Part shown: in pieces, positions 5,703 through 35,384 of the stretch | Layout of the letters: each line of letters opens with the position of its first letter | Numbering within the stretch: the stretch's first letter is position 1 | Source: a virus | UHGV virus genome: UHGV-0385690 | Strand: one strand, 5' to 3' | Length of the DNA stretch: 41,916 nucleotides | The notes under the pieces: generated by a model | Databases searched by the model: none | Told to the model about the DNA's origin: nothing | The model's input: only the letters and a program-made list of their open reading frames with translations | Translations under genes and position numbers: made by a program

Positions 5703-5763
5703 GTATTTTTCTCCTTTCCCATCTATTACAGGCGGCATCTTCCTGCCTCCTGCAATAACCATA

Positions 5764-6123
5764 TCACATTTCATTTTTTGTTTCCAACACCCCTAATTTT
5801 ATGTAGTCTGGGTATTCATTTTCAAGCATGCTGTAACCTACCCTGATGGTTTCCAGCGTGGCTTCCACCTCTTCTATGTGGCTCTGCTTCACAACTGCAT
5901 GCGCATCTATATTTCCAGCCTCATACCGGTTCAAGCTAAGCAGTATTTTCTTTTCCTCTGCCAATGTCAGTAGGCGCTGTACTAATGTTTGTCCCAGAAT
6001 GGATATAGCCGCACATACAATGTCATGACCTTCTGGCAGGTTATTCCTTGCAGCATATCCGGCATGGCCTTTCACAGTTATCTTCACATAGCTCTTATCA
6101 AATAACATATTGACCTTCGTCAT
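5764..6123 (-). CDS. prp: Prp-family cysteine protease (ribosomal-processing-protease-like head maturation protease)
   Basis: 119 aa. ITVKGHAGYAARNNLPEGHDIVCAAISILGQ contains the conserved His and Cys dyad (GHAG...G.DiVCAAvS) of Prp/YsxB. Confidence 0.65.
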   Translation of the reverse strand: MTKVNMLFDKSYVKITVKGHAGYAARNNLPEGHDIVCAAISILGQTLVQRLLTLAEEKKILLSLNRYEAGNIDAHAVVKQSHIEEVEATLETIRVGYSMLENEYPDYIKLGVLETKNEM

Positions 6124-9578: not shown

Positions 9579-10101
9579 TTTGTTCCTGTGCCACCTCCAT
9601 CAACTTTTTAATTTCATCGGCCTGCTCTGTTCCCATCACAATCAAACCAACCCCGTTTTCATCTTCTATGTTGCTATTTTTAATTTCCTCACATCTCTTG
9701 CGCCATTCCGGCATCCGGTTCTCCAACCAGAATACAATGGCTTTTGTATCCCCATCTACATGCACAGTCTCCTCTGCGTATTCAATCACTTCATCCTCTT
9801 TTACTTTTTTGCCGTTCTCATACGTTATATGTCTTGTTTTGATGGGTTTTTTATTTGTCACCGTGTACCCAAGAGCCGCCCTATATAGGCTATTCTCCAC
9901 AAGGCGGTCTGCATAATCCTTCCCCGTTGACAATGCTTCACCTATTTTTTCATGTTTCTTTTTCCACTCCCCCAGGGTGGAGCGGCTTATCCCTACCAAT
10001 TTGGCTATTTCATCGTCAGTTTTCCCAGCCCTGGCCCAGGCCGCCAGAATAGTAAGCTTATCCTTGTTCTCTGCCCATTCCTGCCATTTCTGTCTTGCCA
10101 T
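9550..10101 (-). CDS. terS: terminase small subunit
   Basis: 183 aa with an N-terminal HTH (DDEIAKLVGISRSTLGEWKK) and an AAGGAGG RBS, directly upstream of terL. Confidence 0.7.
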   Translation of the reverse strand: MARQKWQEWAENKDKLTILAAWARAGKTDDEIAKLVGISRSTLGEWKKKHEKIGEALSTGKDYADRLVENSLYRAALGYTVTNKKPIKTRHITYENGKKVKEDEVIEYAEETVHVDGDTKAIVFWLENRMPEWRKRCEEIKNSNIEDENGVGLIVMGTEQADEIKKLMEVAQEQSEKEQQVTE

Positions 10102-10229
10102 TCCACACCTCCTTGAAGGCTATTATACGCGTTCCATTTTTTTGAATCCAACACCCCAAACTCTGGTCGATTTTGTCCGGTTTTCACCACACAAAAAAGA
10201 CGCCGAACGCGTCAGTTCATTCCGATTCT

Positions 10230-12790: not shown

Positions 12791-13081
12791 CTATATGACC
12801 AGTATCCAACCAACTAAGTTCACATCGTGCTTTTCAATGCTTACAAGTTCTATATCCTCCATTAATTCTTTTACTGTTTTCTTGATTGGCACCTGTTCAA
12901 CGATTTTTTCAGCAGTTAACTCTGCCTGCTCTTTTAGCAAATCATTGACTTCATCACGCTGTCCTTTTCTCACTTCTTTTGGCATAAGCAAATAAGAACC
13001 ATATGCCTTCCCCGGATACCTTTCTGTCAATATCTTCACTATCTCACTCCATCTGGTTTCAACTTCATGCATCTTTTCCAT
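12791..13081 (-). CDS. hypothetical protein (96 aa)
   Basis: ORF downstream of the RHH gene in the same orientation. Confidence 0.4.
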   Translation of the reverse strand: MEKMHEVETRWSEIVKILTERYPGKAYGSYLLMPKEVRKGQRDEVNDLLKEQAELTAEKIVEQVPIKKTVKELMEDIELVSIEKHDVNLVGWILVI

Positions 13082-13619: not shown

Positions 13620-15030
13620 GCCGTTCGTTTTATGCAGGTTGAACTGCTGGTTACCAGTACGTCCGTGTCACACCACAGTAGATAGAATCGGCAATGAGTA
13701 AAGGTTGGGTTCCCATTACAAATCTAAATAAGGAGTTGGATCTATGAACGCAGTTGGTATTGATGTTTCTAAAGGTAAAAGTATGGTTGCTGCCCTCCGC
13801 CCGTTCGGCGAAATTGTTGCCAAGCCATTTGAAGTTCCGCATACTTCCAGTGGTTTCCATCAGCTAGTTGATCAGCTCAATTCTCTGGACGGTAGTACTC
13901 GGATTATCATGGAGCATACAGGACGGTATTACGAACCTATGGCCCGATGGCTCTCTGACTCTGGTTTCTTTGTCAGTACGGTTAATCCAAAGCTGATTAA
14001 GGATTACGGCAATAACACTCTCCGTAAAGTTAAAACAGATAAAGCTGATTCCGTTAAGATTGCACGCTATGCTCTTGACAACTGGCAGGATTTGCGCCAG
14101 TATACCAGTATGGATATCATTCGCAATCAATTAAAAACCATGAATCACCAGTTCAGCTTCTACATGAAACAGAAAACCTCTTACAAGAACAACCTCATCT
14201 CCCTGCTGGATCAGACTTACCCTGGCATTAATGACTTCTTTGACAGTCCTGCCCGCAGCGATGGCAGCCAGAAATGGGTAGACTTTGTTTCCTCATTCTG
14301 GCACGTGGACTGTGTGCGTTCTCTTGGGCTTGCTACGTTTACTGAGCGCTATCAAAAATGGTGCAAACGGCACGGCTATAACTTCCAACCAGAGAAACCA
14401 GCACAGATTTATTCGTTTTCCAAAGAACTGATTTCCGTGTTCACGAAAGACTCTGTGACTAAGTTTTTGGTTAAGCAGGCTGTGGAGCAGCTCAATACGG
14501 TATCTTTCACAGTGGAACAGCTCCGCCTGGAAATGAACCGTCTCGCCGCCCAACTGCCAGAGTATCAGGTAGTCATGGCCATGAAGGGGGTAGGCCCCTC
14601 ACTCGGCCCTCAACTTATGGCCGAAATAGGCGATCTCTCTCGCTTTTCCCATCGTGAAGCATTAACTGCATTTGCCGGTGTGGACCCTGGGGTCAATCAA
14701 TCCGGCACCTATGAGGCACGTAGTGTCCGTACATCCAAGCGAGGATCACCGCAGCTGCGCAAAACGTTGTTTCAGATCATGGACGTCCTAATTAAGTCCG
14801 CTCCTTCCGATGACGCTGTTTATCGCTTTCTGGACAAGAAACGTTCAGAAGGGAAGCCGTACTATGTCTACATGACTGCCGGTGCCAATAAGTTCCTGCG
14901 AATCTACTATGGCCGTGTGAAGGAGTATTTAGCTGCCTTACCCAAACCAGAATAACCTTGACTTAACATCCAATAGGCCAGCGTTTTACGGTGGTCTTTT
15001 TGTAGTTCCTAAACGCTGCATAAAACTTTT
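13620..15030 (+). mobile_element. IS110-family insertion sequence (about 1.4 kb)
   Basis: A DEDD-type transposase gene is flanked by an 11-bp inverted repeat: gttttatgcag at 13627..13637 and ctgcataaaac at 15017..15027. Coding runs opposite to every neighbouring gene. Confidence 0.6.
13744..14955 (+). CDS. IS110-family (DEDD) transposase
   Basis: N-terminal MNAVGIDVSKGKS...MEHTGRYYEP (DEDD/RuvC-like), a C-terminal transposase_20-like region, and an AAGGAG RBS. Confidence 0.8.
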   Translation: MNAVGIDVSKGKSMVAALRPFGEIVAKPFEVPHTSSGFHQLVDQLNSLDGSTRIIMEHTGRYYEPMARWLSDSGFFVSTVNPKLIKDYGNNTLRKVKTDKADSVKIARYALDNWQDLRQYTSMDIIRNQLKTMNHQFSFYMKQKTSYKNNLISLLDQTYPGINDFFDSPARSDGSQKWVDFVSSFWHVDCVRSLGLATFTERYQKWCKRHGYNFQPEKPAQIYSFSKELISVFTKDSVTKFLVKQAVEQLNTVSFTVEQLRLEMNRLAAQLPEYQVVMAMKGVGPSLGPQLMAEIGDLSRFSHREALTAFAGVDPGVNQSGTYEARSVRTSKRGSPQLRKTLFQIMDVLIKSAPSDDAVYRFLDKKRSEGKPYYVYMTAGANKFLRIYYGRVKEYLAALPKPE

Positions 15031-17989: not shown

Positions 17990-18342
17990 GAATCGTTTTC
18001 CTCCTTCAGTCCTTTGTATGATTCTATCCATTTGGGCTCTATACAAAAACATCCTTCATGTTCATATTCATTTGATTCCCAGGCCGCTTCAAATCCTTCC
18101 CGGTCGTCAATAAATACCCCTGTCATACTATCCTGCTCCATCATATAGGCAAGTTCTTTATTCTTGCTTCTATCACACAGGCCAAGGAAAACATATTCTC
18201 CTTCCATGGCTGTGCTTTCGACAACATAGGCATTCTCTCCGTCCATATATTCAGCTATACTTTTCCATAACTCATAATCGGAATCTTCTGGATTATTTTC
18301 ATCAAACATGTGAGCTGTAGCCAGTTTTGCAATCTTTATCAT
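17986..18342 (-). CDS. hypothetical acidic early protein (118 aa)
   Basis: ORF with an ATGA overlap with its neighbour. Confidence 0.45.
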   Translation of the reverse strand: MIKIAKLATAHMFDENNPEDSDYELWKSIAEYMDGENAYVVESTAMEGEYVFLGLCDRSKNKELAYMMEQDSMTGVFIDDREGFEAAWESNEYEHEGCFCIEPKWIESYKGLKEENDS

Positions 18343-19421
18343 TCCTCTGCCACTCCCATTCGTTTAAACTGCCTATTTATACCACTTCTTGGGGCTCCAC
18401 CGTACAATCCAACGTTGTTTCGTTCTGTCGCCACCATCAATATATCCTGCAAAACAAGCAACTCATCTTCTGCAATACAACTCGCAACCAACATTAATTC
18501 CCTTAATGTGTATATGGCCCATTCCCTGGTAGACCATTCCTGTTTTTCCTCTTCTGACGGTTCCGGCTGATTCATAGCTGTATCTGTAAATCCTGTAGCG
18601 GTCATTTCTGCATTTTCTGCTGCTTTCTCTGCCTGTATCCCAGCCTGTGCAGCTGCAATTTGCGCATGTTCCGCCCGCTTTGCGGCCTTTTCAGCACGTT
18701 CTGCGGCCTTCTGAGCCTCCCTGATATCCTGCTTCTCTTTGACACGTTCTGAAATTTCTTTGTGGCGGACTTCCTTCCCCTCTGCCGCAGCAGCGGCAAT
18801 TTCCTTTTGTTCCTCTGCCGGAAGTTTTGCAGTCTCATATGCAGCAGTTTTTCCTATTGTTCCTGCCTTAAACTGTTCCTTTGCCTCTGGCACCAAGCCA
18901 TTGTTTATTTTATCCATCCTTGCCACCTGGGTCTTGCTGGTCTTAAGGATATCCGCAACAATATCCCGCATTTTTCCCTTTATAATTATCCCATCTTCTT
19001 CTCTGGCCCGTATAAGGGCCGCTTTCAAACGAGCAGCTTGCTCTGTTTCTTCATATGGGGTAAGTTTGCGGTTAAAGGCATTTCCAATAATAAGGGACAA
19101 CTCAAATAGGGCAGATGTCATTTCTTTATAGAGGTATCTCGCCTTGTAGTCCCTGGGAAGCGCCCCGCATTCTATGTTATGTATATTGGCGAGATTCCTT
19201 CTATGGCCGCTTATAATTTTGTACACGCCATCTACCTGTCCAAGTACAGTCGGCTGCTGTTGTCCTACCGTAAGCATAGAATCTGCCAGCTCCTCGATAT
19301 TCTCCTGACTATAAAAATTGCTTTCTGATGGTTCCACCTCATAAGGACTCAAATAAATTTCCTTAAAATCCGGATCTGACGGTTCCACGGTATTTAATAG
19401 TTCTTTAAATGACCACGACAT
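18339..19421 (-). CDS. ParB/Srx-domain protein with a long Ala/Glu/Lys-rich coiled-coil
   Basis: VLGQVDGVYKIISGHRRNLA (ParB N-terminal GxxRxxA-type motif) followed by a helical KAAERAEKAAKRAEHAQIAAAQ region. Confidence 0.6.
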   Translation of the reverse strand: MSWSFKELLNTVEPSDPDFKEIYLSPYEVEPSESNFYSQENIEELADSMLTVGQQQPTVLGQVDGVYKIISGHRRNLANIHNIECGALPRDYKARYLYKEMTSALFELSLIIGNAFNRKLTPYEETEQAARLKAALIRAREEDGIIIKGKMRDIVADILKTSKTQVARMDKINNGLVPEAKEQFKAGTIGKTAAYETAKLPAEEQKEIAAAAAEGKEVRHKEISERVKEKQDIREAQKAAERAEKAAKRAEHAQIAAAQAGIQAEKAAENAEMTATGFTDTAMNQPEPSEEEKQEWSTREWAIYTLRELMLVASCIAEDELLVLQDILMVATERNNVGLYGGAPRSGINRQFKRMGVAEE

Positions 19422-19431
19422 TGTTCCCCTC

Positions 19432-19746
19432 CTATAGATAGCTTTCTCCAAAACGCAACCTGAATTCACTCCTTGCCATTTCTTCTGTTAACCCACAGGC
19501 AACTTCATGTTTTTCCCATGCAAGCTGTCCGGCTATTTTGGATAGTTTCTCAGCCATTGGGTTCTCATGTATGCGTTCAAGGACATCCCCCATGTTATGG
19601 CATTTATTGCAGCACGGAATTTTTATTCCATCATCCTCTGCCTTATCACGGTTCCCTTTCCCCCATATAAGATGATGTTGTGCTTCTGTCGGCTTCCCGC
19701 AAAACACGCAATAATCGTTATACTCTGTCACAATGCCCTTGCTCAC
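19432..19746 (-). CDS. HNH-type zinc-finger nuclease (GTG start)
   Basis: C-x2-C ... HH ... N ... C-C-N-K-C-H, seen as CVFCGK..AQHHLIWGKGN..IPCCNKCHN. An AGGAGG RBS lies 7 nt before the GTG. Confidence 0.55.
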   Translation of the reverse strand: MSKGIVTEYNDYCVFCGKPTEAQHHLIWGKGNRDKAEDDGIKIPCCNKCHNMGDVLERIHENPMAEKLSKIAGQLAWEKHEVACGLTEEMARSEFRLRFGESYL

Positions 19747-20542
19747 AGGTTATCCTCCTATATTCTTCAACAAATTTTCGATAACTGACTGCTGCCGCAC
19801 TTCTTGGGCTGTATTCCTCCAGCGGCTTCCCCACCATTATGCTTTCAGCCACTTTTTCGCTGTACCGTATTTTTTCCTTAAACATCTTATATCCCTGGTC
19901 CTGTAACCATTCAACACCAGCTACATTAGTATCGTTATTACGATACATTGTGACCAGGATTCCAAGTAGTTTTATTCCCGAGTTTCGCTCCCTGCATTCT
20001 GATATTTGGTTCTTGATAGTTTCCAGTCCATCTAACGCCCACTGGTCCAGTTTCACCGGCACAATTACATCATCAGTGACCATTAGTGCATTTATTACAT
20101 TAATCCCCATATCTGGAGGATTATCTATAATAATATAATCGTATGGCTTTCCATCCTCTGTCCTGGCATTATGCAATGTCTCAAACTGCCCCACTTTCTC
20201 CCCTAATTTACCCATCAACTGGTATGTGGACGTCAGCAGGGACATATTGGCATTCACCACCCCCAGGCCCGGCTCATCCGTAAATCTCATGATTTTATTC
20301 ACATCCCGCCCTGCCAGAAGCTGGGCCGTGCCGCACATATGGTCCTCTGCATGATACCTTCCCATGGCTTGGCTCAGATTCCCCTGCTTATCATTGTCCA
20401 CCAGCAATACGCTCTGTCCGTATCTATGGTGCAATATGTATCCCATTTCAAGGGCTGTCATGGTTTTTCCAACTCCACCCTTTAAATTGATTATGCTTAT
20501 AATCCTCACTATCTTCCTCCTAAAATACATGTGGATCTCCAC
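19718..20542 (-). CDS. parA: ParA/Soj-family partition ATPase
   Basis: Deviant Walker A IISIINLKGGVGKT and ParA-like length. Confidence 0.8.
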   Translation of the reverse strand: MEIHMYFRRKIVRIISIINLKGGVGKTMTALEMGYILHHRYGQSVLLVDNDKQGNLSQAMGRYHAEDHMCGTAQLLAGRDVNKIMRFTDEPGLGVVNANMSLLTSTYQLMGKLGEKVGQFETLHNARTEDGKPYDYIIIDNPPDMGINVINALMVTDDVIVPVKLDQWALDGLETIKNQISECRERNSGIKLLGILVTMYRNNDTNVAGVEWLQDQGYKMFKEKIRYSEKVAESIMVGKPLEEYSPRSAAAVSYRKFVEEYRRITCEQGHCDRV

Positions 20543-23407: not shown

Positions 23408-23436
23408 ATTATAGTGTTCAAAGATTACTTTGTCAA
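23408..23436 (-). promoter_or_regulatory. leftward early promoter: TTGACA (23436..23431), 17 nt, TATAAT (23413..23408)
   Basis: Perfect sigma-70 consensus on the minus strand. It overlaps a palindrome ATCTTTGA-n14-TCAAAGAT (23396..23425) and GATTAC motifs. Confidence 0.6.
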
Positions 23437-23466: not shown

Positions 23467-23495
23467 ATTGACTCTATAACGCATACGTGCTATTA
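23467..23495 (+). promoter_or_regulatory. rightward promoter for the repressor gene: TTGACT, 17 nt, TATTAT
   Basis: Read directly. AGGAGGTGA RBS, then ATG at 23516. Confidence 0.55.
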
Positions 23496-23515
23496 TCATG
23501 TCAGGAGGTGAATTT

Positions 23516-24038
23516 AATGATTGAAAATGAGCGTATAAAAGAAATTAGGAAATCGCTTAAAATGACTATGGAAAGATTTGGTGAAAGACTTGGTGTTACA
23601 AAAACTGCCATATCTAATATTGAAAAGTCGAACCGTAATGTAACAGAACAGATGCGCAAGGCAATCTGCCGAGAATTTAACGTAAATGAGGAATGGCTTC
23701 GGACCGGCAATGGGGAAATGTTCGTCCAGTTATCGCAAGATGACGAGACAGCACATATTGTTCAGGATATGCTGGGCAGTAATACAGGAAGTTTTTATAA
23801 TATCATCTTAGAAATTGCCAAGAGTTACAAAAAGCTTAGCCCTACTTCTCAAAAAGCATTAAATGAGTTGGCAGACAATTTATTGGCTGGTTTGGTTAAC
23901 AAAGAAGAGAAAGATGAATCCGAAATGACGTTTGATGAATTGATTGCTGAATGCCCAAAAACTCCAGAAGAGCTCGAACGTTTATATCCGCCAGTCAATA
24001 TCAAGCCTAAGGTTGTCAGTAAGCCTAAGGTTATTTAA
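23516..24038 (+). CDS. XRE-family HTH transcriptional repressor (CI-like)
   Basis: IKEIRKSLKMTMERFGERLGVTKTAISNIEKSNRNVT is a canonical HTH_XRE. Divergent from the early operon. Confidence 0.75.
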
Positions 24039-24300
24039 CAAAACACCCAAAATTCCGAAGGAAAATTTGGTACTGAGTTTAGAACAGCATTATTTTTTGT
24101 GTCGTTCCTGAGAAGTCTAAATTATAGTAGATAGTATGTAAACTGCGATAGTATATTGCGTATATAGTCTTTCTTTTATAATAAATGTACTTCTTACTCA
24201 ACATAATAACCACAACCTTTCTTGTCGGAAGATTGGGTGCAAATATGATTATATTACTGTAAGCATTTGGAGGAACTGGTAATTTATTCCAGTTTAAACA

Positions 24301-25521
24301 ATGAGTGAATTATTAATATTATCCATGATATTTTCAATATGCCTTTTTTTCCTTGCAAACAAGAAAAAGGTTAATTCTAATAGTAAATCAGAAGATATTC
24401 TGAATGTGAAAATTAAGCAATTGGAATTAAGCCTTGAAACTTCCCTTACTGAAAACAAAAATCTCGCCGCTCATAAAATGAGATTGCTCAAAGATTTGGA
24501 ATCTCAATTAGAGAAATATAATGCTTTGCTTTCTGATTATAACAAACTAACGTGTGATTTAAATACATATATTGAACATCGTAATGACGATTTGAAAAAT
24601 ATTTTCTCAAACTGTGACCACGCCTTTTCGTATGTTGCAACTTTATATGCAGATTATCTTCTAGTGGATTATGAAAATGCCAGCAAATATCTGTTAAACA
24701 AAAAAAGGCCAGCCACCTCTGAAGGGCTTAGAATAGGAGCCTTAAAACTTCAAACAAAATCTTATTTGGTTGAGCTCAATAAAACAAAATACCAATTAAA
24801 TTATCTGCTAAATTTATATCCAGAACTAGAAGATTTTATTGAATCTGACGATGACGGAGACAGGGAAGAAGCAGCTCGTTCTAACGATAAAATACCTGAT
24901 GATACATGGCGTTCTCTATCTGAATCTCAAAAAAGCCAATTGCTACTTACAAATTACTTAAATCGGCGCAAGAGTAAGTGGGAAATTGGACGTGACTATG
25001 AACTGTATGTTGGTTATAAATATAGTTTGCAAGGTTATTCTGTCGATTATTTTGGTTCCTATAATGGTTTGGAAGATTTAGGGAGAGATTTGATTGTCAA
25101 AAAGAAGGGGGAGACTGGCATTATCCAATGCAAATATTGGTCCTCAAAAAAGCAAATACACGAAAAACACATTGCTCAGCTATATGGAACTGTCGTGAGT
25201 TATATAATAGAGAATAATTATATTCCTTCTTTGGTTCATGGAATCTTTATAACGAATATATCCTTATCTGATACTGCAAAAAAATTTGCAGATTTTTTGG
25301 ATATTAAATATAAAGAAAACTATCCCATTGGTGAATTTCCACGTATCAAATGTAATATTAGCAAGGATGAATATGGTAATGAAACTAAAATATATCATCT
25401 TCCTACTGACCAGCAATATGATAACGTTAAAATAGAGCATACAGGAGAATGCTTTGCCTTTACAGTAGATGAAGCGGAAAAATTAGGTTTTCGTCACGCC
25501 TACAAATGGCATAATAAATGA
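24301..25521 (+). CDS. membrane-anchored coiled-coil protein with a C-terminal Mrr-cat/NERD-like PD-(D/E)xK nuclease domain (candidate defence or abortive-infection gene)
   Basis: N-terminal TM LLILSMIFSICLFFLA, coiled-coil from about aa 30 to 110, and a C-terminal GRDYELYV...GY.V...GLEDLGRDLIVKKKGETGIIQCKYW (D...D-x-K core). Confidence 0.55.
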   Translation: MSELLILSMIFSICLFFLANKKKVNSNSKSEDILNVKIKQLELSLETSLTENKNLAAHKMRLLKDLESQLEKYNALLSDYNKLTCDLNTYIEHRNDDLKNIFSNCDHAFSYVATLYADYLLVDYENASKYLLNKKRPATSEGLRIGALKLQTKSYLVELNKTKYQLNYLLNLYPELEDFIESDDDGDREEAARSNDKIPDDTWRSLSESQKSQLLLTNYLNRRKSKWEIGRDYELYVGYKYSLQGYSVDYFGSYNGLEDLGRDLIVKKKGETGIIQCKYWSSKKQIHEKHIAQLYGTVVSYIIENNYIPSLVHGIFITNISLSDTAKKFADFLDIKYKENYPIGEFPRIKCNISKDEYGNETKIYHLPTDQQYDNVKIEHTGECFAFTVDEAEKLGFRHAYKWHNK

Positions 25522-25621
25522 AACAGAAAACCGTCCCTGCGCCAACAGGAACGGCTTCATGATACTATTGCAGGAATACCCTGTATAATATCGCTCTCAC
25601 AAGCTGTATTATATCATCGGG

Positions 25622-25651
25622 CGCCCATTTCTGCAATGGGCGTAATTTTTT
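25622..25651 (+). terminator. intrinsic terminator-like hairpin (cgcccat-ttctgca-atgggcg followed by taatttttt) between the nuclease gene and int
   Basis: Read directly. Confidence 0.45.
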
Positions 25652-25671
25652 ACCCTTATGGAGGAAATAAT

Positions 25672-27015
25672 ATGGCATCTGTAAGAAAAAAGAACAATGG
25701 TTATGAGGTTACTGTTAGTGATGGATATGATTCTAACGGTAAGAAAGTCACTGTAAGCAGGACTTTTATCCCCGAACCAAATTGGAATGAAAAAAGAGTT
25801 CAAAAGGAATTAGAAAAATTCAAGGTTGAGTTAGAGAACCGGGTTAAACACGGTGATAATGTCAAGGCAGATAAAATAACCATTGAAAAATTATCAGCCG
25901 ACTTCCTGACAGATATGAAGCCGCCTGAACTCTCTCATACCACATATGAATCTTATAAAAAAATCATAGAACAGCGCATTATCCCACACATAGGCCAGGA
26001 ACGCATTACACGGGTTAATGGTCATACTGCAAAAATGTTTGAAGATGCTGTCAGATCCGAAGGGAGACTTGATAAAAGAAAGGGGCCTATCTCAGAGCAG
26101 ACTATCAAGCGAATGACTTTAGTTTTGAGCGCCATGCTCTCCTATGCGGTAAGCCTTGGGTGGCTTTCCATGAACCCACTTATTTTTTCCGGTAAACAGC
26201 GCAGGAAGCAGACCAAAAAGAAAGAATACGAGGTTGCGTATCTTTCTATAGAGCAGGTAAAAAAATTCCTTTGGATTCTGGATAATCCGGTTAAAATACG
26301 TCGGAAGGCTCATGTTTCCAAGCGCGGAAATAAGGCGATTGAAACAAAAGAATATTTTCAAGACTGGCAGTTAGATACAAAATGGCGCTTTTTCTTTTAC
26401 CTCTCCTTGTTTACAGGTGACAGAAGGGGCGAGAACATATCCCTTACCTGGGATAGCATTGATTTTGAAAAATGTACTGTATCCATCTCAAAATCAACAG
26501 CTAAAACTGAGGATGGAGTATTATTAAAAGATACTAAGACTCATGCGAGCCGTGTCACGGTCGTTCCGCCCTTTGTCATGCAGGTAGGCAAGGAGCTTCT
26601 GGCAGAGCAAAAAAGAATCTGCCTGTCCCTCGGCGATAAGTGGCAAGGCTATCGTGGCCGGAGCTTCAGCAAAAATTTCGTATTTACATCCTGGGATGGT
26701 TCCCAGATGCATCTGGACAGCCCTAGAAGGGAATTTAAACGGCTTATACGTATCTATAATGAAAATGTATCCACCGGTGAAGATGACAGGCTTCCTGAGG
26801 CTGCTACGCTTCACAGCCTACGTCATACAACGGCCTCTATACTTATATCAAATAACATGGATCCACAATCAGTTGCCGGTATTCTGGGACATGCTAAGTC
26901 TACTACTACTTTGAATATATATTCGTACTTTTTCAAATCCAAGAATCAGGAAGCAGCCAATATTATGGAGAATGTTTTACTCAATCCTACTGAAAAAACA
27001 TCAATAGTAGGATGA
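25672..27015 (+). CDS. int: tyrosine integrase
   Basis: MASVRKKNNGYEV start with a GGAGG RBS. C-terminal LRHTTASILISNNMDPQSVAGILGHAKSTTTLNIYSY (HxxR ... Y). Lies adjacent to the att core. Confidence 0.85.
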   Translation: MASVRKKNNGYEVTVSDGYDSNGKKVTVSRTFIPEPNWNEKRVQKELEKFKVELENRVKHGDNVKADKITIEKLSADFLTDMKPPELSHTTYESYKKIIEQRIIPHIGQERITRVNGHTAKMFEDAVRSEGRLDKRKGPISEQTIKRMTLVLSAMLSYAVSLGWLSMNPLIFSGKQRRKQTKKKEYEVAYLSIEQVKKFLWILDNPVKIRRKAHVSKRGNKAIETKEYFQDWQLDTKWRFFFYLSLFTGDRRGENISLTWDSIDFEKCTVSISKSTAKTEDGVLLKDTKTHASRVTVVPPFVMQVGKELLAEQKRICLSLGDKWQGYRGRSFSKNFVFTSWDGSQMHLDSPRREFKRLIRIYNENVSTGEDDRLPEAATLHSLRHTTASILISNNMDPQSVAGILGHAKSTTTLNIYSYFFKSKNQEAANIMENVLLNPTEKTSIVG

Positions 27016-27024: not shown

Positions 27025-27029
27025 ATCAA

Positions 27030-27068
27030 AAAGAAAAGAACCCCTATCGGAGTTCTTTTCTTTTTGAC
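27030..27068. terminator. hairpin gaaaagaac-n10-gttcttttc followed by a T-run, after int
   Basis: Perfect 9-bp stem. Confidence 0.5.
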
Positions 27069-27104: not shown

Positions 27105-27150
27105 ATCAAGCCACTGGCCGGACTCGAACCGGCGACCCACGCATTACGAA
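27105..27150 (-). other. attP core: 3'-terminal about 45 nt of a tRNA gene (T-arm GCCGG-TTCGAGT-CCGGC plus acceptor 3' strand CAGTGGC-T), with no 5' half
   Basis: Minus strand reads cgtaatgcgtgGGTCGCCGGTTCGAGTCCGGCCAGTGGCT. No complementary 5' acceptor strand is found upstream. Flanked by the AT-rich region 27151..27265 and by arm repeats. Confidence 0.6.
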
Positions 27151-27350: not shown

Positions 27351-30300
27351 CTATTGCTTCTTTGCATTCTCATCTCTCTCTCTTTCTTTAGCCGCTTTTC
27401 TCCAGCTTGAATAATCAGTTCCGCTGTATATATTTTTTCCGTCCACCCTCAGTACATTTAATTTTGCCTGGATTGCTTCATATTCTTTACGGTTTCCCTC
27501 CAGATATGCTGCTATCCATTTTTCTTTATAGGACCGCGTAATGGATGACTTAATGCTACTTATGGCCTCTGACTTTGTTTTCCCGGCTTTGGTTTTGCTG
27601 TCTATGATTTCAGCCGATATCGCTTTAAAGGCATCCAGGCTCTTCACTGTATTGTCTACTTTCTCAACTGCTCCGAGGATATCTCTGGAAGAGTAAATGC
27701 TCCACTCTTCTTCGTCTTTTTCCCCAGTCAGTATCTCACCATACAGTTCATCCGGATCCGTTTTCGCCTCTGCCTCCCAGTCTATCTCTTCCCCTGTACT
27801 GAGCTGATTGATTCTGGAATCAACCACGGAAGTTACCAGTTTTCCGGCATATCCTTCTGCGATTAGTTCACCAACAGCCGCTTTGTATGCTTCTGTATCA
27901 GCTTCCATTTTGGCCTGTGCTGCGGTTTCAATCCTTGGGTCTATATAATCTTTTGATATAAGTTCTCCTTTTATGAGGGACTTAATTTTATTGCTTATGG
28001 TTTCATTGTCGAACTCCGCTTTGTTTAAATCGGTCTTGATCCGCTTCTGGAGAGCCTTATCACCGTTTCTTTGGGCTTCGATCATCATTCCTGCGTATAG
28101 ATTCAAGTTATCTTTGCTTCCTATGGCATATTTTTGCTTTAACCACGTATAGTCTACTGAATCGCTCCCATGCTCATTAATAACAGTATCTACAATCGCT
28201 CTTAAATCCCTAGTTGCACTTTTTACTGGTGAACCAAACAGTTTACTACCACTCTGAATCACGTCTATTATAACCGCTTGTGGTGTTAAGCTGCTTTCTC
28301 CATCAGCAAGCTTTTTCACCCGGTTTAAAGCCCTGGCTAAATCCTGATAAGCAGCAACATCTGGGCGGTTTGGGGTGTATCCATCAATTAATATTCCGTA
28401 CGCATCTTTTACATAAGGGATACTGTTTATTAGATTCATATTGTCTTTGAAATTCCCCCATACATTATCCCAATATTTTTCTATCCATTTCTTATCCCTA
28501 TCATCATCTCTCATTGCATCCTGGATTGCTGCGGCCATTGATGTAACCAGGGCAGCTGCGGTATATACAGCGACCGCTTTAGCCATACGGCCTTTGGCGC
28601 CTTTCTTCCCTACGGCAACATCAGAGGCAGCTCGATAGAGCATATTATATGTTTTAAGTGGTTCCGCCATGAATGCAGTCAACATCTTATCCGAATCACG
28701 TTCGCTTCTCATAATCTGGGTTCTGTGCAGTACTGAATCCACTACCTGTGTTTTGTCAATAACCTCGCTGAATCGTTTCCCTACCTCAGCATAAAACGCT
28801 TCGGTACCAACAGACAGATCCGGGTGTCTGTCCATACATTCAAACTCACATGCTCTCCACAGCCTATTCCATGCGAGCTTATCACCTTTTTCAGCGAATA
28901 TCATAAATGCATTATTGATTTTCTGCGTTTTACTATCTGTCTGGAATAATACATCCTTTATCTGCCTGCTATTGTCCATACGATAGAATCCCCAGTCTTT
29001 CCACTGAGCAATTGGTGCGTATTTACACATAATGTCCCACTGGTCTTTCCTGGTCATCGTAAGCGCGCCTCTGCTCAAATACTTAGCATCTATTTCCATT
29101 GATGCTCTTATATAGGCTGTCGGTTGCTGCAAAGCTACTCTAATGTTACCCGCAACAGAAGCGACCTTCATATTTTGTGACAGTTTGTCCCAGAGATTCT
29201 TGTCTTTATTAAGGCTTCCGTTAATATCCGCTATCAACTTGTCAATATATTTGTTCCCTTCTTTTCCGTAGGTGCGCTCTATTTCCTCCTTTATACTTTT
29301 TCCATCTGCCGCGTTTCTCATATCCATATAATTGAATACTTTATTAAGGTCTGATAGAGGAATCACATAGGCATTGTATGTGCTCATTTGGTCCACTTGC
29401 CTCGAGTATACATCGAATATATCTTCAATCACGATAGGTTTATTCGCTTTTTCCACGGTACTTTTTGTGAATCCTAGGTTTTTGATAGTACTCTGCTGGT
29501 TTTTTAAGTTTCCCTGCTCCGTATGGATATGATTATCATATACTGTAATTGGAAAATAATTTCTCGCTGTATATTTCATATATCCGTACATCTGCATACT
29601 GACTTCATTTCCCCACGCTGCACAATCATCTCCCATAAATCGCTGCATCCCGTCGGCCAATGCCTTTTGTTCCGGCGTCAGAGTATTAATAATCCTTGCT
29701 ATATCTGCCTCTGTCACTTTGGTTTCTCTGTATGCCTTTTCTATTTTTGGCAATATCAGCTTTCCATCTTCGATACGCATTTTACCCGCCCTTGGAGCTG
29801 ATATAATGCCTCCCGTACGTTCATACATGTGAGTGCGCGCCTGGTTTCGCTTGTTCAATTCATATAATGACATTACTTGTGAAATAGTAAGCTCAATTGT
29901 CCCTCCAGACGTTTTATATTTACCCGGCTTTGCCTCTGGTCCAGTCCATTCTCTCAGCGTCTTATATGATATTCCATTATCCTTCAGCAACTTTTCCACA
30001 TGGTCCTGTGCATTCTTAAGTTTTATTGTCTTTTTGTCCAGCCCTTCCCGAAGGGAATTGTAAAGAGATTTGAAGTTATCACCCAGTTTTCCAAACATAG
30101 TCTGTGCATCCAGCATATCATAATTCAACATTTTATCAGCCGGCCCGATTACTCCCAGATATTCTGAGTGGTTCTTTCGGTCCTGTAAATCGTCAAATAC
30201 GCCTTCCGCAAGAATGCTGAGTTGTCCGGAACGTTTGTTACTCTTTAAGGTGTTGGCCTCCGTGATTGCCTTTTTCATAGACAACACGACCTTTTTTAGT

Positions 30301-33300
30301 TCTTCCATATGGTAAACATCCAAGTTGTCCAGTTTTTCCACGCCTTCCGCTTTCTTTGCAATTGCTTCAATCCGCTCAACAAGGTCTGGGTCTATCTCCA
30401 TATAGAACTCTCTTCCATCCTTCCCACGAAGGATACCATCTTCCTTTATAATCTTTTCAAATGCATCCTTTGCATTCCTCCAAGCCGTGGTGCGCTGGGT
30501 AGGTATCCCGTTGTTATTCAGTTCATTAGATGAAAAATCAATATTGGAAAGGAATTCTGCCACAACGGTTCTAATTTCCTCCGGGATATGTTTTGTATCC
30601 GTGGGTTTTAACAGCCAAGTCTGCATTGTCTTTACTTCCTTCATGATTATTTTCTTGGCTTCCCTAGCTCTCTGATTCTCTCTCACTCGTTTTGTCTGAT
30701 CACGGTTTTTCTGCTGCATTGCCGCCAGAGCCTGATTCTTTTCATTTCTGAGGTCATCCATCTTCTTTTTATAATATTCCTTCTGTTCCCTCTGCTGGGT
30801 TGCCGTCAGATTTTTATACGCATTAGCAAGCTTTTGAATCTCCTGTATATTCTCCCTACGAACCCGGTATAGATTGTCCTCATACTGCTTTTTCAGATTG
30901 TTCTTATACTCCCTCATTTTCTGAGAGTACTCCCGCCTCACCTTCTGTATCTCCGCCTCTTTACGGTCCGCGAATGTAGGTTTTTCCTGACGTACGTCAA
31001 AGTAAGATTGCAAGATATCCTGCCCTACCATATAGGCCATTTCATCCAGGTTGGCCTTATACGGATTTTGTACCTGTATTTCGGTCTGTTCCAGCGCATC
31101 CGCGATGGCAACTAGCTGGTCGGCCGGATGGGTAATATCTTCCGGGAATAATTCCGGATGTAGTGCTGACAATTCTTGATACAAGCTGTCTACCGGTATT
31201 CCATCGTTTCCCAATTTCATCCTGCCAAAATTACGCTTCCTAAATTCGTTATATCCGCCCGATACCGCCATGTCTGCCTTGTCCTGTTCAGAAATCTTAA
31301 TCTTGGTATTTTTTATCTGGTTTCTGACATCCTTATACTGTTGTGTCATTTCCGTATCAACCTGCCTGGATTGCTTTAGGATGCCCTTTGCAATACTCGT
31401 GGCGGCTTCTGTTAACTGGGCGCTGTCCACATGTTCGGCACTTCGGATATATCCATACAACTTATCCAGATTTTTTATAAGTGTTTCTGGTTTGTAGGTG
31501 CTGTTATATTCTCCAAGCAGTCCTTTTGCCACTTTTTCCACATCACGCTGCCTTACCTCGTTTTTGGGGGTAAGCGTAAATTGTTTTTCAAGGAGTTTAT
31601 TAGCATCTCTCAAAGCCTGATTTTCATCCAGTAACGCCTCTATATGTCTATCTGTTTCTGCTCTATCTACATCTTCCAACTGTAATCTTATTTTCTCCGG
31701 CTGGTTTTCACCGTTGACATCCATAAGTTTATTGAGTATACTGTAGATAGGCGGAAGAGTGTAAGTGTCGCTCCGTGTTTTGCCTCCTTGGAGGTCCGGG
31801 GTCTTGAACGGCATAACACTCTCCGCCTTTGTTGTGTGTACTTCATGCAGATACATTTTATTATCATCTAACAATTTCACAACTGCCAATCCATAATATT
31901 TCCCAGCATACTTTCCCTCAGAAATATTTACCTTAGCTCCTATCACGGCTGAATCATAACCCCTGTTTTTCCAGTTCTTTTTATAGTCCAATACATAGCC
32001 GTTTTTCAATATATCCGGAACAGCTGCAAATGTAATTGCCTTTGCCCGTCCTACTCCATGGCCTATATCATCCTTTACGCTATCTCTATCAAGATATATG
32101 TCTCCTACTACTTCATTGTGCACTTTTCCTCCGATTGACTTATAAAAATCAGAAACTTGGGTTACAAGGTCTTTCTCGCCCTTTTCAAATTCGTTTCCTG
32201 ATAAATCCGCTACCGAATCCATTTCTCTGACCTTTTCATAATTCTCTTCAATGTTTTCATCTGTCACCAATTCTGGTTTTTCCAAGGCGTACTGTTCCTT
32301 CTGCCCCTCTGCCTGTCCCTGTCTGTCTGCTTTGTATGTTTCGCTGGCGTCTGACAGTGCATGCATCCAGGCGTCTCTGGCATCCTCATAATATCTCAGG
32401 TCCTCTTCCAGTCCCTTTGCGGCTTCCCTGGTGCTTCCATTCTTCATCAGCTGTTTGATGGAATCAACCACATCACTCAGGAAATCCACGATTCTCTGTG
32501 CAATTGTTTTGTCCTTTTTGGCAATAGAATCAATGAATTTTGGATCATTAAAGAACTTCTGCGTGGCGTCCGCCACAACCTCATCCATGATTTCCTCCCG
32601 TGTCAACTCCTGTCCGGCCTCTGCGTACCTGTTTTCATAGCTCTCCATGAGGTTTTCCAAGGATGTGTTTTCCGATTTCATAACGGCTTCCACGGCTATC
32701 TCTGTATACAGCCTATATCCCTTTGGCGAATACTTCTTGATATGGTGTGTCAGTTCATGGGTAAGAGTTCCGTTGAAATCGTTGCTGTTAATGGAGATAG
32801 TGATTTCTCCATTTCCATAAGAGCCGGCCGCGTTGGTCTGTCCCAATCCATCCACCAGATTAATTTTTAAACCGGTCATCTTTCCTATATGCTCTGCCAC
32901 TTTACGCTGCGGTGTAGTTGCGCTTTCCGATACAGTTCCCAACCCTCCAGTCCTTAGGATTCCCTGGGGAACGGTTTTGGGCCGGCCGGTTTTCAGGTCT
33001 ATATTGTTGTCCGTGTTGTAATCCTGCGCGCCGGCTTTATATGCATCCACAAACTGTTCATTCGTTAGTACGCTCATAATGGCCGAGCGTTCTGCAATAT
33101 CCATGCTCACGTTATAGTAACCTGCATCGTAGGCACGCCCAAAAGCTTTATTGTAGGCAGACAGCTCAATGCTGCCGTCATATCCTTTCTGTAATGCCTC
33201 CTGGCCATTCTTCCCATATGGCTTTCTATATGCTTCTGTCTGATTCGGAACAGCCTGGCTGGCCACTGTTTGATTCACAGCCGGTTTCTGTGTTGGTTCC

Positions 33301-35384
33301 GTCTGGTTTTGAGCTTTGGTCGGCGCTTCCTCTGGCTCATTATACGGCTCGTATTCGGCTGTTTCGGGTTCGGTGTAAGTTTGTTCATCCGCTTCCGTTC
33401 CTGTGGCCTGCTGGCTATTCTGAGCGTTTTCCCTGGCTGCTTTTTCCTCGTTATGGCGCATGGTGTTTTCCATGAACTGCTGAAACCGTATCGCATACTC
33501 TGCCTTCTCGCGGTTAGAAACAAATTCCTTGTTGGCCTGTTTGGCCGCGTATTCCTCTGCCATTTGCTTCAGCTTAGATGCTTCCTGATAATCTGCCGGA
33601 TCTGCATAGCTTTCCGGCTTAATATCTGACAAGCCATTGACATAATCACGATAGTCTGGGTTGATGCTCTTTCCATACTGATTTTTAGCCCGATTGTTTG
33701 ATATGGCTCCAGGCGCATTCAGAATACCAGCGGTCAAGGCACCTAGTGCAAAATCTTCCCATGTCTGAGGGTCTTTAAGGTCTCCAGCAAGGTCCAGATT
33801 GTCTCCGTATATCATGCTCTTTCTGACGGATTCCGTCAGGTCCTGCACGGCCTCCTGAGTTCCTTCTGACAGCATATCACCACCATAATTAGCCGCCCCA
33901 AGGACTGCCCTACGGATTGCCGGATTTTTCGCCAAGGCATTTGATATGCCCTGTTTAGCCGCCTGGCCTACTTTACTGTTTTTTAATACCTTCCCTACGG
34001 CTCCGCCGCCATAGGCCGCGATACCGCCCAATAGCCAGTTGGTTACATATTCATCGGCGGCAGTAAGGGCCGCATTCATCTGGGCCCCCTCAACCGGACG
34101 CCCTTCCATGATATCCTGCCGATAAGTCTGACCTGCCATTTGAGCTGACATTATACCGCTTCCCAAAGCCCCCTTTGCCGCCCAAGCGGACAGTTTTCCA
34201 CCAAATTTTCCTATAGTTCCCGCGGCTCCAGCGCTTCCTGCGCCTCCCGTTGCCGCTGCAATTGCAATAGATGGAGCCAGGTTTCCAAGACCGGACGCAA
34301 GGTTGTAAGCTAATCTTTCAGCGCCTCCAGCCTGACTATTTAGCAGCTCCTGGTAATATTCGGATTCTGTGATGTTGTAGTCCGGCTGTCTGCCTAATAT
34401 TGCATCTGGCAGGTGTCCGATTCCTTTCACAGCGCTTTCCGCACCTATTCCAAATGATTTTCCAATATTGTACGGAACCTTCATGGGGTCTGGTACGGTC
34501 GTTTCGTCTCTGGTGTATTTATCCTGCGCGCTTCTCAGGTTGATTGTATCTTGCAGACTATCCAGGTATTTATCTGCCGCCTCCTTTCCGGCCTTTTCAA
34601 ATACATAATCATATGTATATCGCTCTCGCTCGGTCATAAGGGCATACTTCCGCAGCATATTATCGCTTTCCGAGCCTACTCCCATAGTTCTTTTTAGGGT
34701 TTTCTCCCGAATGTCCTCCTGGGTTGCCCCGTCTTTTCCCCACATCTTTTCCATTTGCCTGTATGCATCTTCTACTGGATTGGATGTTTTCTTCCAAAAT
34801 TGGGCGCGCTCCATCCATGAAGGGTCATTCGCTTTGGCTTTTTCAACGGTTTGGGCAAAGTCTGGTTCATTAGGCAGGTCAATGTATCGCTTAAACTGAT
34901 ATCCATCCTGATATCCTATTTTATTCAGTATTCTTTTTGCTGCTTCCCGCTCCTGTGCATCCTTTTTTCTTCTGGCAGTCGCTTCCCGTGTTCTTTCCTC
35001 AATTGCATCCCTATTTATTTCGTCCTGCATGATAGCTGCATAGGATGTTCCTCTGCTTTCGTGGTTTCCAGACAAATAAGAGGACAATATCGGCGTTTTG
35101 CTCTGCATCGTGCTTGTTGAATGCTGTATATGCTCTTTGTCGCTACGCTCTCCGTCCATCTGTTTTGGTATCTTCTGCGTAGCAGCCCCCAGACGTTCCC
35201 GTCTTCTTCGAAATATCTCTACCGGTGACATTCCAGTATCTTCCGAAACATCTCCCTCCTGATTAATTGCCTGTCTTCTTCTCTCAAAAATCCTTGCCGC
35301 TGCGCTGACCTTCTCTTCTTCTCCATCTTCCTTTAAGGATGATATAGTCATATTGTACCTATCATAGTTTTTCCTTGTTGACAT
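27351..35384 (-). CDS. giant (2677 aa) virion-associated multidomain protein: glycine-rich hydrophobic segment (aa about 360-560), DUF4157-like HExxH zincin motif, long coiled-coil regions (tape-measure-like, ejection or polyvalent protein)
   Basis: Single uninterrupted ORF with an AAAGGAGAA RBS. Tape-measure-like Gly zipper GLGNLAPSIAIAAATGGAGSAGAAGTIGKFGG...GGIAAYGGGAVGKV. Motif GNGEITISINSNDFNGTLTHELTHHI. Confidence 0.6.
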   Translation of the reverse strand: MSTRKNYDRYNMTISSLKEDGEEEKVSAAARIFERRRQAINQEGDVSEDTGMSPVEIFRRRRERLGAATQKIPKQMDGERSDKEHIQHSTSTMQSKTPILSSYLSGNHESRGTSYAAIMQDEINRDAIEERTREATARRKKDAQEREAAKRILNKIGYQDGYQFKRYIDLPNEPDFAQTVEKAKANDPSWMERAQFWKKTSNPVEDAYRQMEKMWGKDGATQEDIREKTLKRTMGVGSESDNMLRKYALMTERERYTYDYVFEKAGKEAADKYLDSLQDTINLRSAQDKYTRDETTVPDPMKVPYNIGKSFGIGAESAVKGIGHLPDAILGRQPDYNITESEYYQELLNSQAGGAERLAYNLASGLGNLAPSIAIAAATGGAGSAGAAGTIGKFGGKLSAWAAKGALGSGIMSAQMAGQTYRQDIMEGRPVEGAQMNAALTAADEYVTNWLLGGIAAYGGGAVGKVLKNSKVGQAAKQGISNALAKNPAIRRAVLGAANYGGDMLSEGTQEAVQDLTESVRKSMIYGDNLDLAGDLKDPQTWEDFALGALTAGILNAPGAISNNRAKNQYGKSINPDYRDYVNGLSDIKPESYADPADYQEASKLKQMAEEYAAKQANKEFVSNREKAEYAIRFQQFMENTMRHNEEKAARENAQNSQQATGTEADEQTYTEPETAEYEPYNEPEEAPTKAQNQTEPTQKPAVNQTVASQAVPNQTEAYRKPYGKNGQEALQKGYDGSIELSAYNKAFGRAYDAGYYNVSMDIAERSAIMSVLTNEQFVDAYKAGAQDYNTDNNIDLKTGRPKTVPQGILRTGGLGTVSESATTPQRKVAEHIGKMTGLKINLVDGLGQTNAAGSYGNGEITISINSNDFNGTLTHELTHHIKKYSPKGYRLYTEIAVEAVMKSENTSLENLMESYENRYAEAGQELTREEIMDEVVADATQKFFNDPKFIDSIAKKDKTIAQRIVDFLSDVVDSIKQLMKNGSTREAAKGLEEDLRYYEDARDAWMHALSDASETYKADRQGQAEGQKEQYALEKPELVTDENIEENYEKVREMDSVADLSGNEFEKGEKDLVTQVSDFYKSIGGKVHNEVVGDIYLDRDSVKDDIGHGVGRAKAITFAAVPDILKNGYVLDYKKNWKNRGYDSAVIGAKVNISEGKYAGKYYGLAVVKLLDDNKMYLHEVHTTKAESVMPFKTPDLQGGKTRSDTYTLPPIYSILNKLMDVNGENQPEKIRLQLEDVDRAETDRHIEALLDENQALRDANKLLEKQFTLTPKNEVRQRDVEKVAKGLLGEYNSTYKPETLIKNLDKLYGYIRSAEHVDSAQLTEAATSIAKGILKQSRQVDTEMTQQYKDVRNQIKNTKIKISEQDKADMAVSGGYNEFRKRNFGRMKLGNDGIPVDSLYQELSALHPELFPEDITHPADQLVAIADALEQTEIQVQNPYKANLDEMAYMVGQDILQSYFDVRQEKPTFADRKEAEIQKVRREYSQKMREYKNNLKKQYEDNLYRVRRENIQEIQKLANAYKNLTATQQREQKEYYKKKMDDLRNEKNQALAAMQQKNRDQTKRVRENQRAREAKKIIMKEVKTMQTWLLKPTDTKHIPEEIRTVVAEFLSNIDFSSNELNNNGIPTQRTTAWRNAKDAFEKIIKEDGILRGKDGREFYMEIDPDLVERIEAIAKKAEGVEKLDNLDVYHMEELKKVVLSMKKAITEANTLKSNKRSGQLSILAEGVFDDLQDRKNHSEYLGVIGPADKMLNYDMLDAQTMFGKLGDNFKSLYNSLREGLDKKTIKLKNAQDHVEKLLKDNGISYKTLREWTGPEAKPGKYKTSGGTIELTISQVMSLYELNKRNQARTHMYERTGGIISAPRAGKMRIEDGKLILPKIEKAYRETKVTEADIARIINTLTPEQKALADGMQRFMGDDCAAWGNEVSMQMYGYMKYTARNYFPITVYDNHIHTEQGNLKNQQSTIKNLGFTKSTVEKANKPIVIEDIFDVYSRQVDQMSTYNAYVIPLSDLNKVFNYMDMRNAADGKSIKEEIERTYGKEGNKYIDKLIADINGSLNKDKNLWDKLSQNMKVASVAGNIRVALQQPTAYIRASMEIDAKYLSRGALTMTRKDQWDIMCKYAPIAQWKDWGFYRMDNSRQIKDVLFQTDSKTQKINNAFMIFAEKGDKLAWNRLWRACEFECMDRHPDLSVGTEAFYAEVGKRFSEVIDKTQVVDSVLHRTQIMRSERDSDKMLTAFMAEPLKTYNMLYRAASDVAVGKKGAKGRMAKAVAVYTAAALVTSMAAAIQDAMRDDDRDKKWIEKYWDNVWGNFKDNMNLINSIPYVKDAYGILIDGYTPNRPDVAAYQDLARALNRVKKLADGESSLTPQAVIIDVIQSGSKLFGSPVKSATRDLRAIVDTVINEHGSDSVDYTWLKQKYAIGSKDNLNLYAGMMIEAQRNGDKALQKRIKTDLNKAEFDNETISNKIKSLIKGELISKDYIDPRIETAAQAKMEADTEAYKAAVGELIAEGYAGKLVTSVVDSRINQLSTGEEIDWEAEAKTDPDELYGEILTGEKDEEEWSIYSSRDILGAVEKVDNTVKSLDAFKAISAEIIDSKTKAGKTKSEAISSIKSSITRSYKEKWIAAYLEGNRKEYEAIQAKLNVLRVDGKNIYSGTDYSSWRKAAKERERDENAKKQ

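Follow-up and report, generated by a model that had tools for sequence, protein, structure and literature searches.

What does the temperate phage UHGV-0385690 carry between its repressor and its integrase, and what might that gene do for a lysogen? The window analysed here is the whole 41,916-nucleotide stretch of this virus genome, and the gene in question is an open reading frame (ORF) encoding 406 amino acids on its plus strand (24301..25521). A sequence-only reading had called this ORF, which is indeed present, and had proposed that its product is a membrane-anchored, coiled-coil nuclease with a role in defence or abortive infection. Our analysis extends this picture to a large protein family that is a widespread and probably convergent counterpart, in prophage lysogeny modules, of SNIPE (PD-lambda-1), a membrane-bound nuclease of E. 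coli that cuts phage lambda DNA during its injection (Saxton et al., Nature 2026; PMC13190303). From context we infer a defence function, and we consider it likely that the nuclease gene is a defence gene of some kind; the more specific proposal that it would cleave phage DNA at entry, in the manner of SNIPE, is the one we favour, at a little under an even chance.

Architecture of the nuclease protein

Profile, catalytic residues and fold all place the protein in the Mrr_cat nuclease superfamily. The Pfam family Mrr_cat (PF04471) matches residues 231-331 with 36 bits, against a gathering cutoff of 21 (E=8.3e-9), within a nuclease module (24898..25320, plus strand) composed of lead-in helices (residues 200-243) and a PD-(D/E)xK alpha/beta core (residues 244-340). 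The candidate catalytic residues, E234 (25000-25002), D263 (25087-25089) and Q276-x-K278 (25126-25134), all read on the plus strand, are intact, and E234, D263, Q276 and K278 are invariant in an alignment of 72 homologues. An AlphaFold2 model derived from 72 homologues, with a mean predicted local distance difference test score (pLDDT) of 88.9, puts the alpha/beta core at residues 247-338, and a structure search with this model bore out a restriction-endonuclease-like alpha/beta fold. The closest solved structure is AF1548 (PDB 1y88), a member of the Mrr/Mrr_cat family with the same catalytic fold and E...D...QxK motif, and the structural neighbours of the nuclease include Can2, Card1, Cap4, NucC and LmuA, as well as MspJI, AspBHI and LlaBIII; a search of PDB by sequence returned nothing at E<=1. 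The Mrr-type core recognized in the earlier reading is thus secure, its suggested likeness to NERD (PF08378) finding no Pfam match at E<=1. E. coli Mrr has an N-terminal winged-helix DNA-binding domain, in place of which the present protein has a membrane anchor, a stalk, a middle module and the C-terminal domain described below.

The N-terminal features proposed at the outset also stand. A transmembrane (TM) anchor occupies residues ~4-21 (24310..24363, plus strand), with KKK directly after it; it is the only TM-like segment in the protein, its 17-residue Kyte-Doolittle maximum (residues 3-19) is 2.47, and AlphaFold2 models an N-terminal helix at residues 2-19. The coiled-coil stalk that follows (residues 30-103, 74 in all; 24388..24609, plus strand) is modelled as a single helix with pLDDT 83-97, with a hydrophobic periodicity that is strongest at 3.5 residues over residues 28-104. 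Three further parts had been overlooked: a helical middle module (residues 104-172; 24610..24816), an acidic linker (residues 173-199; 24817..24897) and a C-terminal "sunset" domain (residues 345-403; 25333..25509; NCBIfam NF051437), all on the plus strand.

The middle module has the consensus ..PY.AG..ADY.T.D.E.LA..L.WG....R.KKV..IREIR..AK..I.E.K.A.YQL.YL..LFP.L.D, and D118, Y164 and P174 are invariant in the family. It matched no Pfam family, and not DUF4041, at E<=1; a search with the middle-module profile recovered members of its own family alone, as short fragments all below 250 amino acids, and constitutes a weak test of homology to DUF4041 or of fusion to other nucleases. In the model, residues 105-243 form a helical bundle broken by the acidic stretch, where confidence falls (pLDDT 52-62) and the charge is -8 (family mean -6.5). 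The sunset region is modelled as a small beta-beta-beta-alpha unit (residues 349-394). The window protein scores 23.9 bits against NF051437, under its cutoff of 27, and the same model matches 70 of the 72 homologues at E<=0.01 (best 2.5e-7); PHROG 21287, annotated "membrane associated protein", matches the C-terminal domain as well (2.9e-5). A literature search for "sunset domain" found nothing relevant.

The predicted disposition of the protein in the membrane is strengthened by its relatives. An N-terminal anchor, beginning at about residue 4-5, is found in 94 of 112 full-length homologues (84%), and in these 94 the mean number of Lys plus Arg residues is 0.18 in the 12 residues before the anchor versus 3.0 in the 12 after it. 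By the positive-inside rule, this charge bias predicts a single N-terminal TM helix with N-out/C-in topology, and hence a nuclease in the cytoplasm. Among members that lack the anchor, several (P0027, P0031, P0035, P0044 and P0051) begin with sequences of the MGLFDF-, MGIFDIF- or MSLLDIF- type and pass directly into the coiled coil; an N-terminus of this kind may be an amphipathic membrane-binding helix, and one anchor-less member has a weak DivIVA-like N-region.

Conservation climbs from the N- to the C-terminus of the family: it is 0.33 in the TM anchor, 0.29 in the coiled coil, 0.54 in the middle module, 0.51 in the acidic linker, 0.73 in the lead-in helices, 0.69 in the nuclease core and highest, 0.77, in the sunset domain, and close relatives show the same gradient. 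The stretch N-terminal to the middle module ranges from 59 to 193 amino acids across the family, and the middle module itself is duplicated in some longer homologues.

An exchangeable cassette between repressor and integrase

Comparison with four sister phages from IMG/VR (L093, L095, L096 and L097), whose integrases are 97-98% identical to that of the window, reveals the gene to be the content of an exchangeable cassette. Nucleotide homology in blastn breaks at 24291 and resumes at 25527, and the cassette so delimited (24292..25526, plus strand) contains little besides the ORF and gives way to unrelated DNA in the sister phages. The intergenic segment upstream of it (24039..24291, plus strand) is retained in all four with 90-95% nucleotide identity. 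From these breakpoints it follows that only the ORF is mobile, and that the upstream region, the candidate promoter within it (TTGTCG-16-TATGAT, sigma-70-like; 24222-24249, plus strand) and two hairpins downstream belong to the phage backbone. The "own promoter region" formerly ascribed to the gene is therefore better described as common property of phages that carry other cargo.

Three alternative cargo sets occupy the site: a 120-residue TM protein (L093 5438..5800), that protein together with a 303-residue J-domain/TM protein (L096 4545..4907 and 4936..5847), and a 125-residue TM protein (L097 5475..5852). The 303-residue protein combines a DnaJ J-domain, a TM helix and an unassigned C-terminal domain; the 125-residue protein has a weak match to the PADLOC "2TM effector". 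All are candidates for membrane-acting exclusion genes. Their GC content (0.30-0.38) marks them, too, as AT-rich: the nuclease ORF has a GC content of 0.321 versus 0.444 +/- 0.028 for 31 other ORFs of the window (z = -4.5), and a third-position value (GC3) of 0.265 versus 0.462 +/- 0.051 (z = -3.9), in agreement with the strong compositional difference remarked on earlier. The slot between repressor and integrase is thus a true exchange hotspot, as had been supposed from its position, and the nuclease gene is cargo (a "moron"). Since the sister phages manage without it, the gene is dispensable for the phage life cycle; as a corollary, these phages, differing only in the cargo ORF, offer natural isogenic controls. 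In another lineage (L153 5506..6393, and L152-L169), an 83-residue ORF and an 84-residue RelE/ParE-like ORF are found in the slot. This cassette appears to have replaced the 5' two-thirds of a nuclease gene, of which a start-less remnant (residues 276-403) still precedes int.

A mobile family with a recurrent location

A word-indexed search recovered 3,569 clusters (90% identity) at E<=1e-3; the best 120 of these have E<1e-85, identities of 41-100% (mostly ~45-55%) and a coverage that is typically 70-100% of the query. An exhaustive hidden Markov model (HMM) search of 1.84 billion representatives yielded 1,053 clusters, defined at 50% identity, at E<=1e-30. Distant relatives retain 40-50% identity across 300 residues. 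Species representatives with the gene include many Clostridia, Bacteroidota (Flavobacterium, Chryseobacterium, Nonlabens), Patescibacteria, Melainabacteria, Pseudomonadota, Scalindua and Omnitrophota, a patchy distribution among phyla through which the gene has evidently moved, and four Hymenobacter plasmids carry it as well. One of the latter (L171, NZ_CP141185.1), a non-mobilizable plasmid, has a 36%-identical homologue (8917..10113) between metal-resistance operons and beside a DUF4238 gene, with a VbhA/Fic pair 8 kb away.

The location seen in the window recurs in the family. Among 69 IMG/VR loci, 40 have a helix-turn-helix (HTH) gene within three genes upstream, 33 a recombinase within three genes downstream, and 28 both; the corresponding figures for 79 genome loci are 27, 19 and 14. 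When the two genes closest to the homologue in either direction were counted by Pfam family, HTH_3 (28), ImmA-type M78 peptidase (8) and S24 peptidase (7) stood out upstream, and Phage_integrase (15) and serine recombinase (4) downstream; S24 and ImmA domains, frequent in the upstream neighbours, are typical of phage repressors. In Clostridia prophages the recurrent slot is bounded by an HTH repressor on one side and by a recombinase, tyrosine or serine, on the other. In an unrelated prophage of C. symbiosum (L009-L012), for example, a 51%-identical homologue lies downstream of an HTH repressor, and directly after it, still ahead of a serine recombinase, is AbiD (L010 9051..10010; PADLOC 3.2e-64; Pfam Abi_2), which argues that two cargo genes have been stacked in one slot. 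AbiH lies near two further homologues.

Neither a recurrent partner gene nor a methyltransferase was found among the two neighbours on either side of about 70 loci, and no methyltransferase flanks the gene in the window. A Type II restriction-modification system was considered and discarded, as no methyltransferase accompanies the gene or its homologues.

Relation to SNIPE and to other systems acting at the membrane

The earlier statement that this is not a well-known named system holds in so far as no PADLOC v2 (2023) model matches the window protein, and the family goes unmentioned in two published accounts of recombinase-linked and metagenomic screens for defence genes. PADLOC models applied to the 72 homologues gave weak matches only, mostly to coiled-coil-rich proteins (LmuB, JetC), and PD-Lambda-1 was not among the 25 most-matched PADLOC families for these members (E<=0.01). 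The statement needs amendment in another respect, since SNIPE embodies the same design logic in a non-homologous protein. SNIPE has an N-out/C-in TM helix, a variable N-region, a central DUF4041 domain that binds DNA and the tape-measure protein, and a C-terminal GIY-YIG nuclease; its conservation decreases from nuclease to central domain to variable N-region, and the N-regions of its homologues often resemble FtsB, PilO, ATP synthase subunit b or DivIVA (PMC13190303). It resides constitutively at the membrane, its defence is direct rather than abortive, and removal of its TM helix makes it toxic (PMC13190303).

The family described here shares with SNIPE a single-gene organization, an N-region of variable length and poor conservation, a moderately conserved centre and a highly conserved nuclease; in both, a minority of members lack the TM helix and have other membrane-targeting N-termini, and both are carried on mobile elements with a patchy distribution across many phyla. 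The parts themselves differ: an Mrr-type PD-(D/E)xK nuclease stands in place of GIY-YIG, and a middle module distinct from DUF4041, as judged by comparison of sequence profiles alone (Pfam and PADLOC HMMs), in place of the SNIPE centre. The family adds a C-terminal sunset domain and a conserved acidic linker and, unlike SNIPE, is placed in the lysogeny modules of Clostridia prophages.

Other precedents resemble the protein in more limited ways. Superinfection-exclusion genes in the lysogeny modules of Gram-positive prophages, of the type of lactococcal Sie2009 and Ltp of S. thermophilus phage TP-J34, lie between integrase and repressor, are expressed in the lysogen and encode membrane-associated products acting at DNA entry; these products are lipoproteins or small membrane proteins devoid of an enzymatic domain, whereas the window protein has a nuclease, predicted on the cytoplasmic side. 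Zorya and Kiwa are alike in concept, as defences at the inner membrane during genome injection, but are multi-gene systems of unrelated proteins; HMM searches for them gave no significant matches, ZorA and ZorB appearing once each at E>=4.8e-4, as coiled-coil/TM noise. RNase Y of Firmicutes likewise joins an N-terminal TM anchor, a coiled coil and a cytoplasmic nuclease, and differs in its KH and HD domains, its RNA target and its status as a core housekeeping gene. Homology to RNase Y was not detected beyond coiled-coil noise, seen as a weak RNase_Y match in one homologue.

A proposed mechanism and its alternatives

The features assembled above are most easily reconciled with a single-gene defence by location, in which foreign DNA would be cut while crossing the membrane. 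The cargo gene would probably be transcribed in the lysogen, with the repressor or from just downstream of it. Its product would be a single-pass, N-out/C-in protein of the inner membrane, presumably dimerized by the coiled-coil stalk, which would hold the Mrr-type nuclease and the sunset domain at the cytoplasmic face. Sequestration of the enzyme at the membrane would protect the chromosome and the resident prophage, probably together with auto-inhibition, for which the acidic linker and the middle module are candidates. The N-terminal region, which evolves fast, may tune localization or target range. We put forward more tentatively the extended proposal that the family arrived at defence by location independently of SNIPE, by convergence, in Gram-positive gut bacteria, with the acidic linker acting as a pseudo-substrate. 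If true, the distinction of self from non-self by subcellular position would be a general immune strategy that has evolved more than once and is not peculiar to SNIPE, and the sunset domain would acquire its first function, in DNA binding or in recognition of the injection machinery.

Several observations weigh against the favoured explanation. The protein lies outside the SNIPE family as judged by its profiles, the likeness being architectural only, and the injection machinery encountered in Gram-positive-type Clostridia hosts differs from the ManYZ/tape-measure-protein system of lambda on which SNIPE relies. The substrate could be RNA, and RNase Y, too, has a TM anchor, a coiled coil and a nuclease in succession. 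Neither a repressor nor a recombinase adjoins the gene in about half of the genome loci; these are mostly non-clostridial, and the majority of copies beyond Clostridia lack such neighbours. Neither megablast with the region nor tblastn with the protein detected a homologue in 50,697 GenBank phage records, so that no cultured model phage with the gene is at hand. Signals for expression are slight: the promoter prediction upstream of the ORF is weak (scan score 9/12), and no Shine-Dalgarno sequence lies close to ATG 24301, the nearest GGAGG (24269-24273) being 27 nucleotides upstream.

Of the competing explanations, that of an abortive-infection effector survives best, and we nevertheless regard it as unlikely. 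Here the tethered nuclease would be triggered on infection, for example by membrane perturbation or by a phage protein sensed through the middle module, and would kill the cell by degrading host and phage nucleic acid without distinction. PD-(D/E)xK nucleases are common effectors of this kind, as the structural neighbours Can2, Card1, Cap4, NucC and LmuA illustrate, AbiD and AbiH occur beside or near a few homologues, and the acidic linker with the middle module could form an auto-inhibitory switch. On the other hand, the protein has no sensor, signalling partner or nucleotide-binding domain, a nuclease meant to destroy the chromosome needs no permanent membrane tether, and SNIPE, the experimentally studied protein of this layout, defends directly (PMC13190303). 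On the model of SNIPE, direct cleavage of entering DNA seems to us more likely than abortive infection, to which the earlier reading had given equal weight.

A role outside defence, whether as a prophage-addiction toxin, as a nuclease that would attack host or competitor DNA or RNA at the membrane (RNase Y-like RNA turnover, or processing of DNA during uptake) or as a helper in the lytic cycle, is somewhat less probable again. The resemblance in layout to RNase Y, with the one coiled-coil-driven profile match, would suit it, as would the many copies in ordinary-looking chromosomal neighbourhoods outside Clostridia and the RelE/ParE-like toxin-antitoxin pair with which another lineage fills this slot. 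However, the sister phages lack the gene, and its strand and position associate it with the lysogeny unit and not with the lytic operons. A patchy spread over mobile elements, such as it shows, is what one expects of a defence or accessory gene and not of a housekeeping gene, and it has no conserved antitoxin-like partner. A toxin-antitoxin pairing of the HTH gene with the nuclease was specifically set aside, because that HTH protein is the backbone repressor of the phage and also precedes unrelated cargo in the sister phages.

Modification-dependent (Type IV) restriction of the Mrr kind, in which the modification would be read by the middle module or the sunset domain and the anchor would be secondary, we judge improbable. 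The Mrr_cat catalytic domain, the presence of MspJI, AspBHI and LlaBIII among the structural neighbours, the annotation of family members as "restriction endonuclease" in source databases and the lack of a cognate methyltransferase nearby are all as expected of such an enzyme. Pfam and fold searches, by contrast, detect no modification reader (Mrr winged helix, SRA, or YTH/ASCH-like), and this explanation leaves the anchor in 84% of homologues and the variable stalk unaccounted for. That the gene is a decaying relic with no current role, as its weak ribosome-binding site and the truncated remnants of another lineage might suggest, is very improbable in view of its full-length frame, its invariant catalytic residues, the identity kept by distant relatives over 300 residues, and the occurrence of an identical protein (P0001) in 124 blocks of the contig collection.

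From a broader perspective, SNIPE established that position alone can let a nuclease distinguish foreign from self DNA, and a family of about 1,050 clusters with a SNIPE-like design assembled from unrelated parts permits a direct test of the generality of that principle. Its members are frequent among prophages of human-gut Clostridia and could there influence phage host range; the family is also a candidate for inclusion in defence-prediction tools. The repressor-integrase slot is likewise flagged as a source of further membrane-acting defence genes, among them the J-domain membrane protein and the two small TM proteins of the sister phages.

Organization of the locus and of the phage

For the nuclease ORF, an N-terminus longer than that from ATG 24301 is ruled out by an in-frame TAA at 24295-24297, and a start at ATG 24325, as in the 398-residue protein P0004, was rejected because it would shrink the anchor to 11 hydrophobic residues. 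Upstream, in the lysogeny module and outside the cassette, is the XRE/CI-type repressor (23487..24038, plus strand; Pfam HTH_19 8.5e-13, HTH_3 1.5e-11), which probably starts at ATG 23517 to give 173 amino acids, matching the gene calls in L001-L008; a promoter scan places divergent promoter-like sites beside it (23408-23436, minus strand, and 23468-23496, plus strand). No terminator-like site was found by the scan between repressor and nuclease ORF. Downstream, also outside the cassette, is the tyrosine integrase (25672..27015, plus strand; 447 amino acids as called in L001-L008; Phage_integrase 7.3e-18), whose true start at 25672 is preceded by GGAGG and a spacing of 7 nucleotides to the ATG. 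The hairpin noted earlier before int, with its T-run (25621-25652, plus strand), has the form of an intrinsic terminator; it lies just before the int ribosome-binding site, is clear of the integrase, which begins at 25672, and is kept in the sister phages. This terminator-like element may end a repressor-cargo transcription unit. A second hairpin, at the downstream cassette junction (25527-25558), has a T-run on the minus strand only and is part of the conserved backbone. Repressor, nuclease ORF and integrase are all on the plus strand and nearly all other long ORFs on the minus strand, so that the nuclease gene runs opposite to the lytic genes.

The phage, which codes for a large terminase and a P22-like portal, is seen in two forms: in L002 and L004 it is integrated and int is followed by host genes, in L001 and L003 it is circular or excised and int is followed, as in the window, by an ORF of 2677 amino acids. 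The two cease to be homologous at window position 27150, inside the 3' 42 nucleotides of a host tRNA-Thr(CGT), which are identical to the attP core (27109..27150, minus strand); in L002 this tRNA gene is located at 12809-12881, within a Thr-Glu-Pro tRNA cluster. The meeting of integrated and excised forms at this core identifies the window as a temperate phage that integrates and excises. Two further phages (L098, L099), whose integrase is only 52% identical, have a 35-nucleotide attP core in common with it. An imperfect palindrome of ~40 bp (27026..27067), ~90% self-complementary and situated ~10 nucleotides past the int stop codon, is probably the int terminator.

The giant 2677-residue ORF (27351..35384, minus strand) adjoins attP and matched no Pfam domain at E<=1e-3; in IMG/VR loci L130-L137, ORFs of ~1,970 amino acids lie tail-to-tail with members of the nuclease family. 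An IS110-family transposase gene (13744..14955, plus strand; DEDD_Tnp_IS110 1.4e-31, and Transposase_20) is inserted among the minus-strand phage genes and explains why GC skew is locally reversed. A second tyrosine recombinase, with a SAM_4 domain, is also encoded by this phage (11506..12552, minus strand; Phage_integrase 6.4e-31), as are proteins resembling ParA (19718..20542) and ParB (18339..19469).

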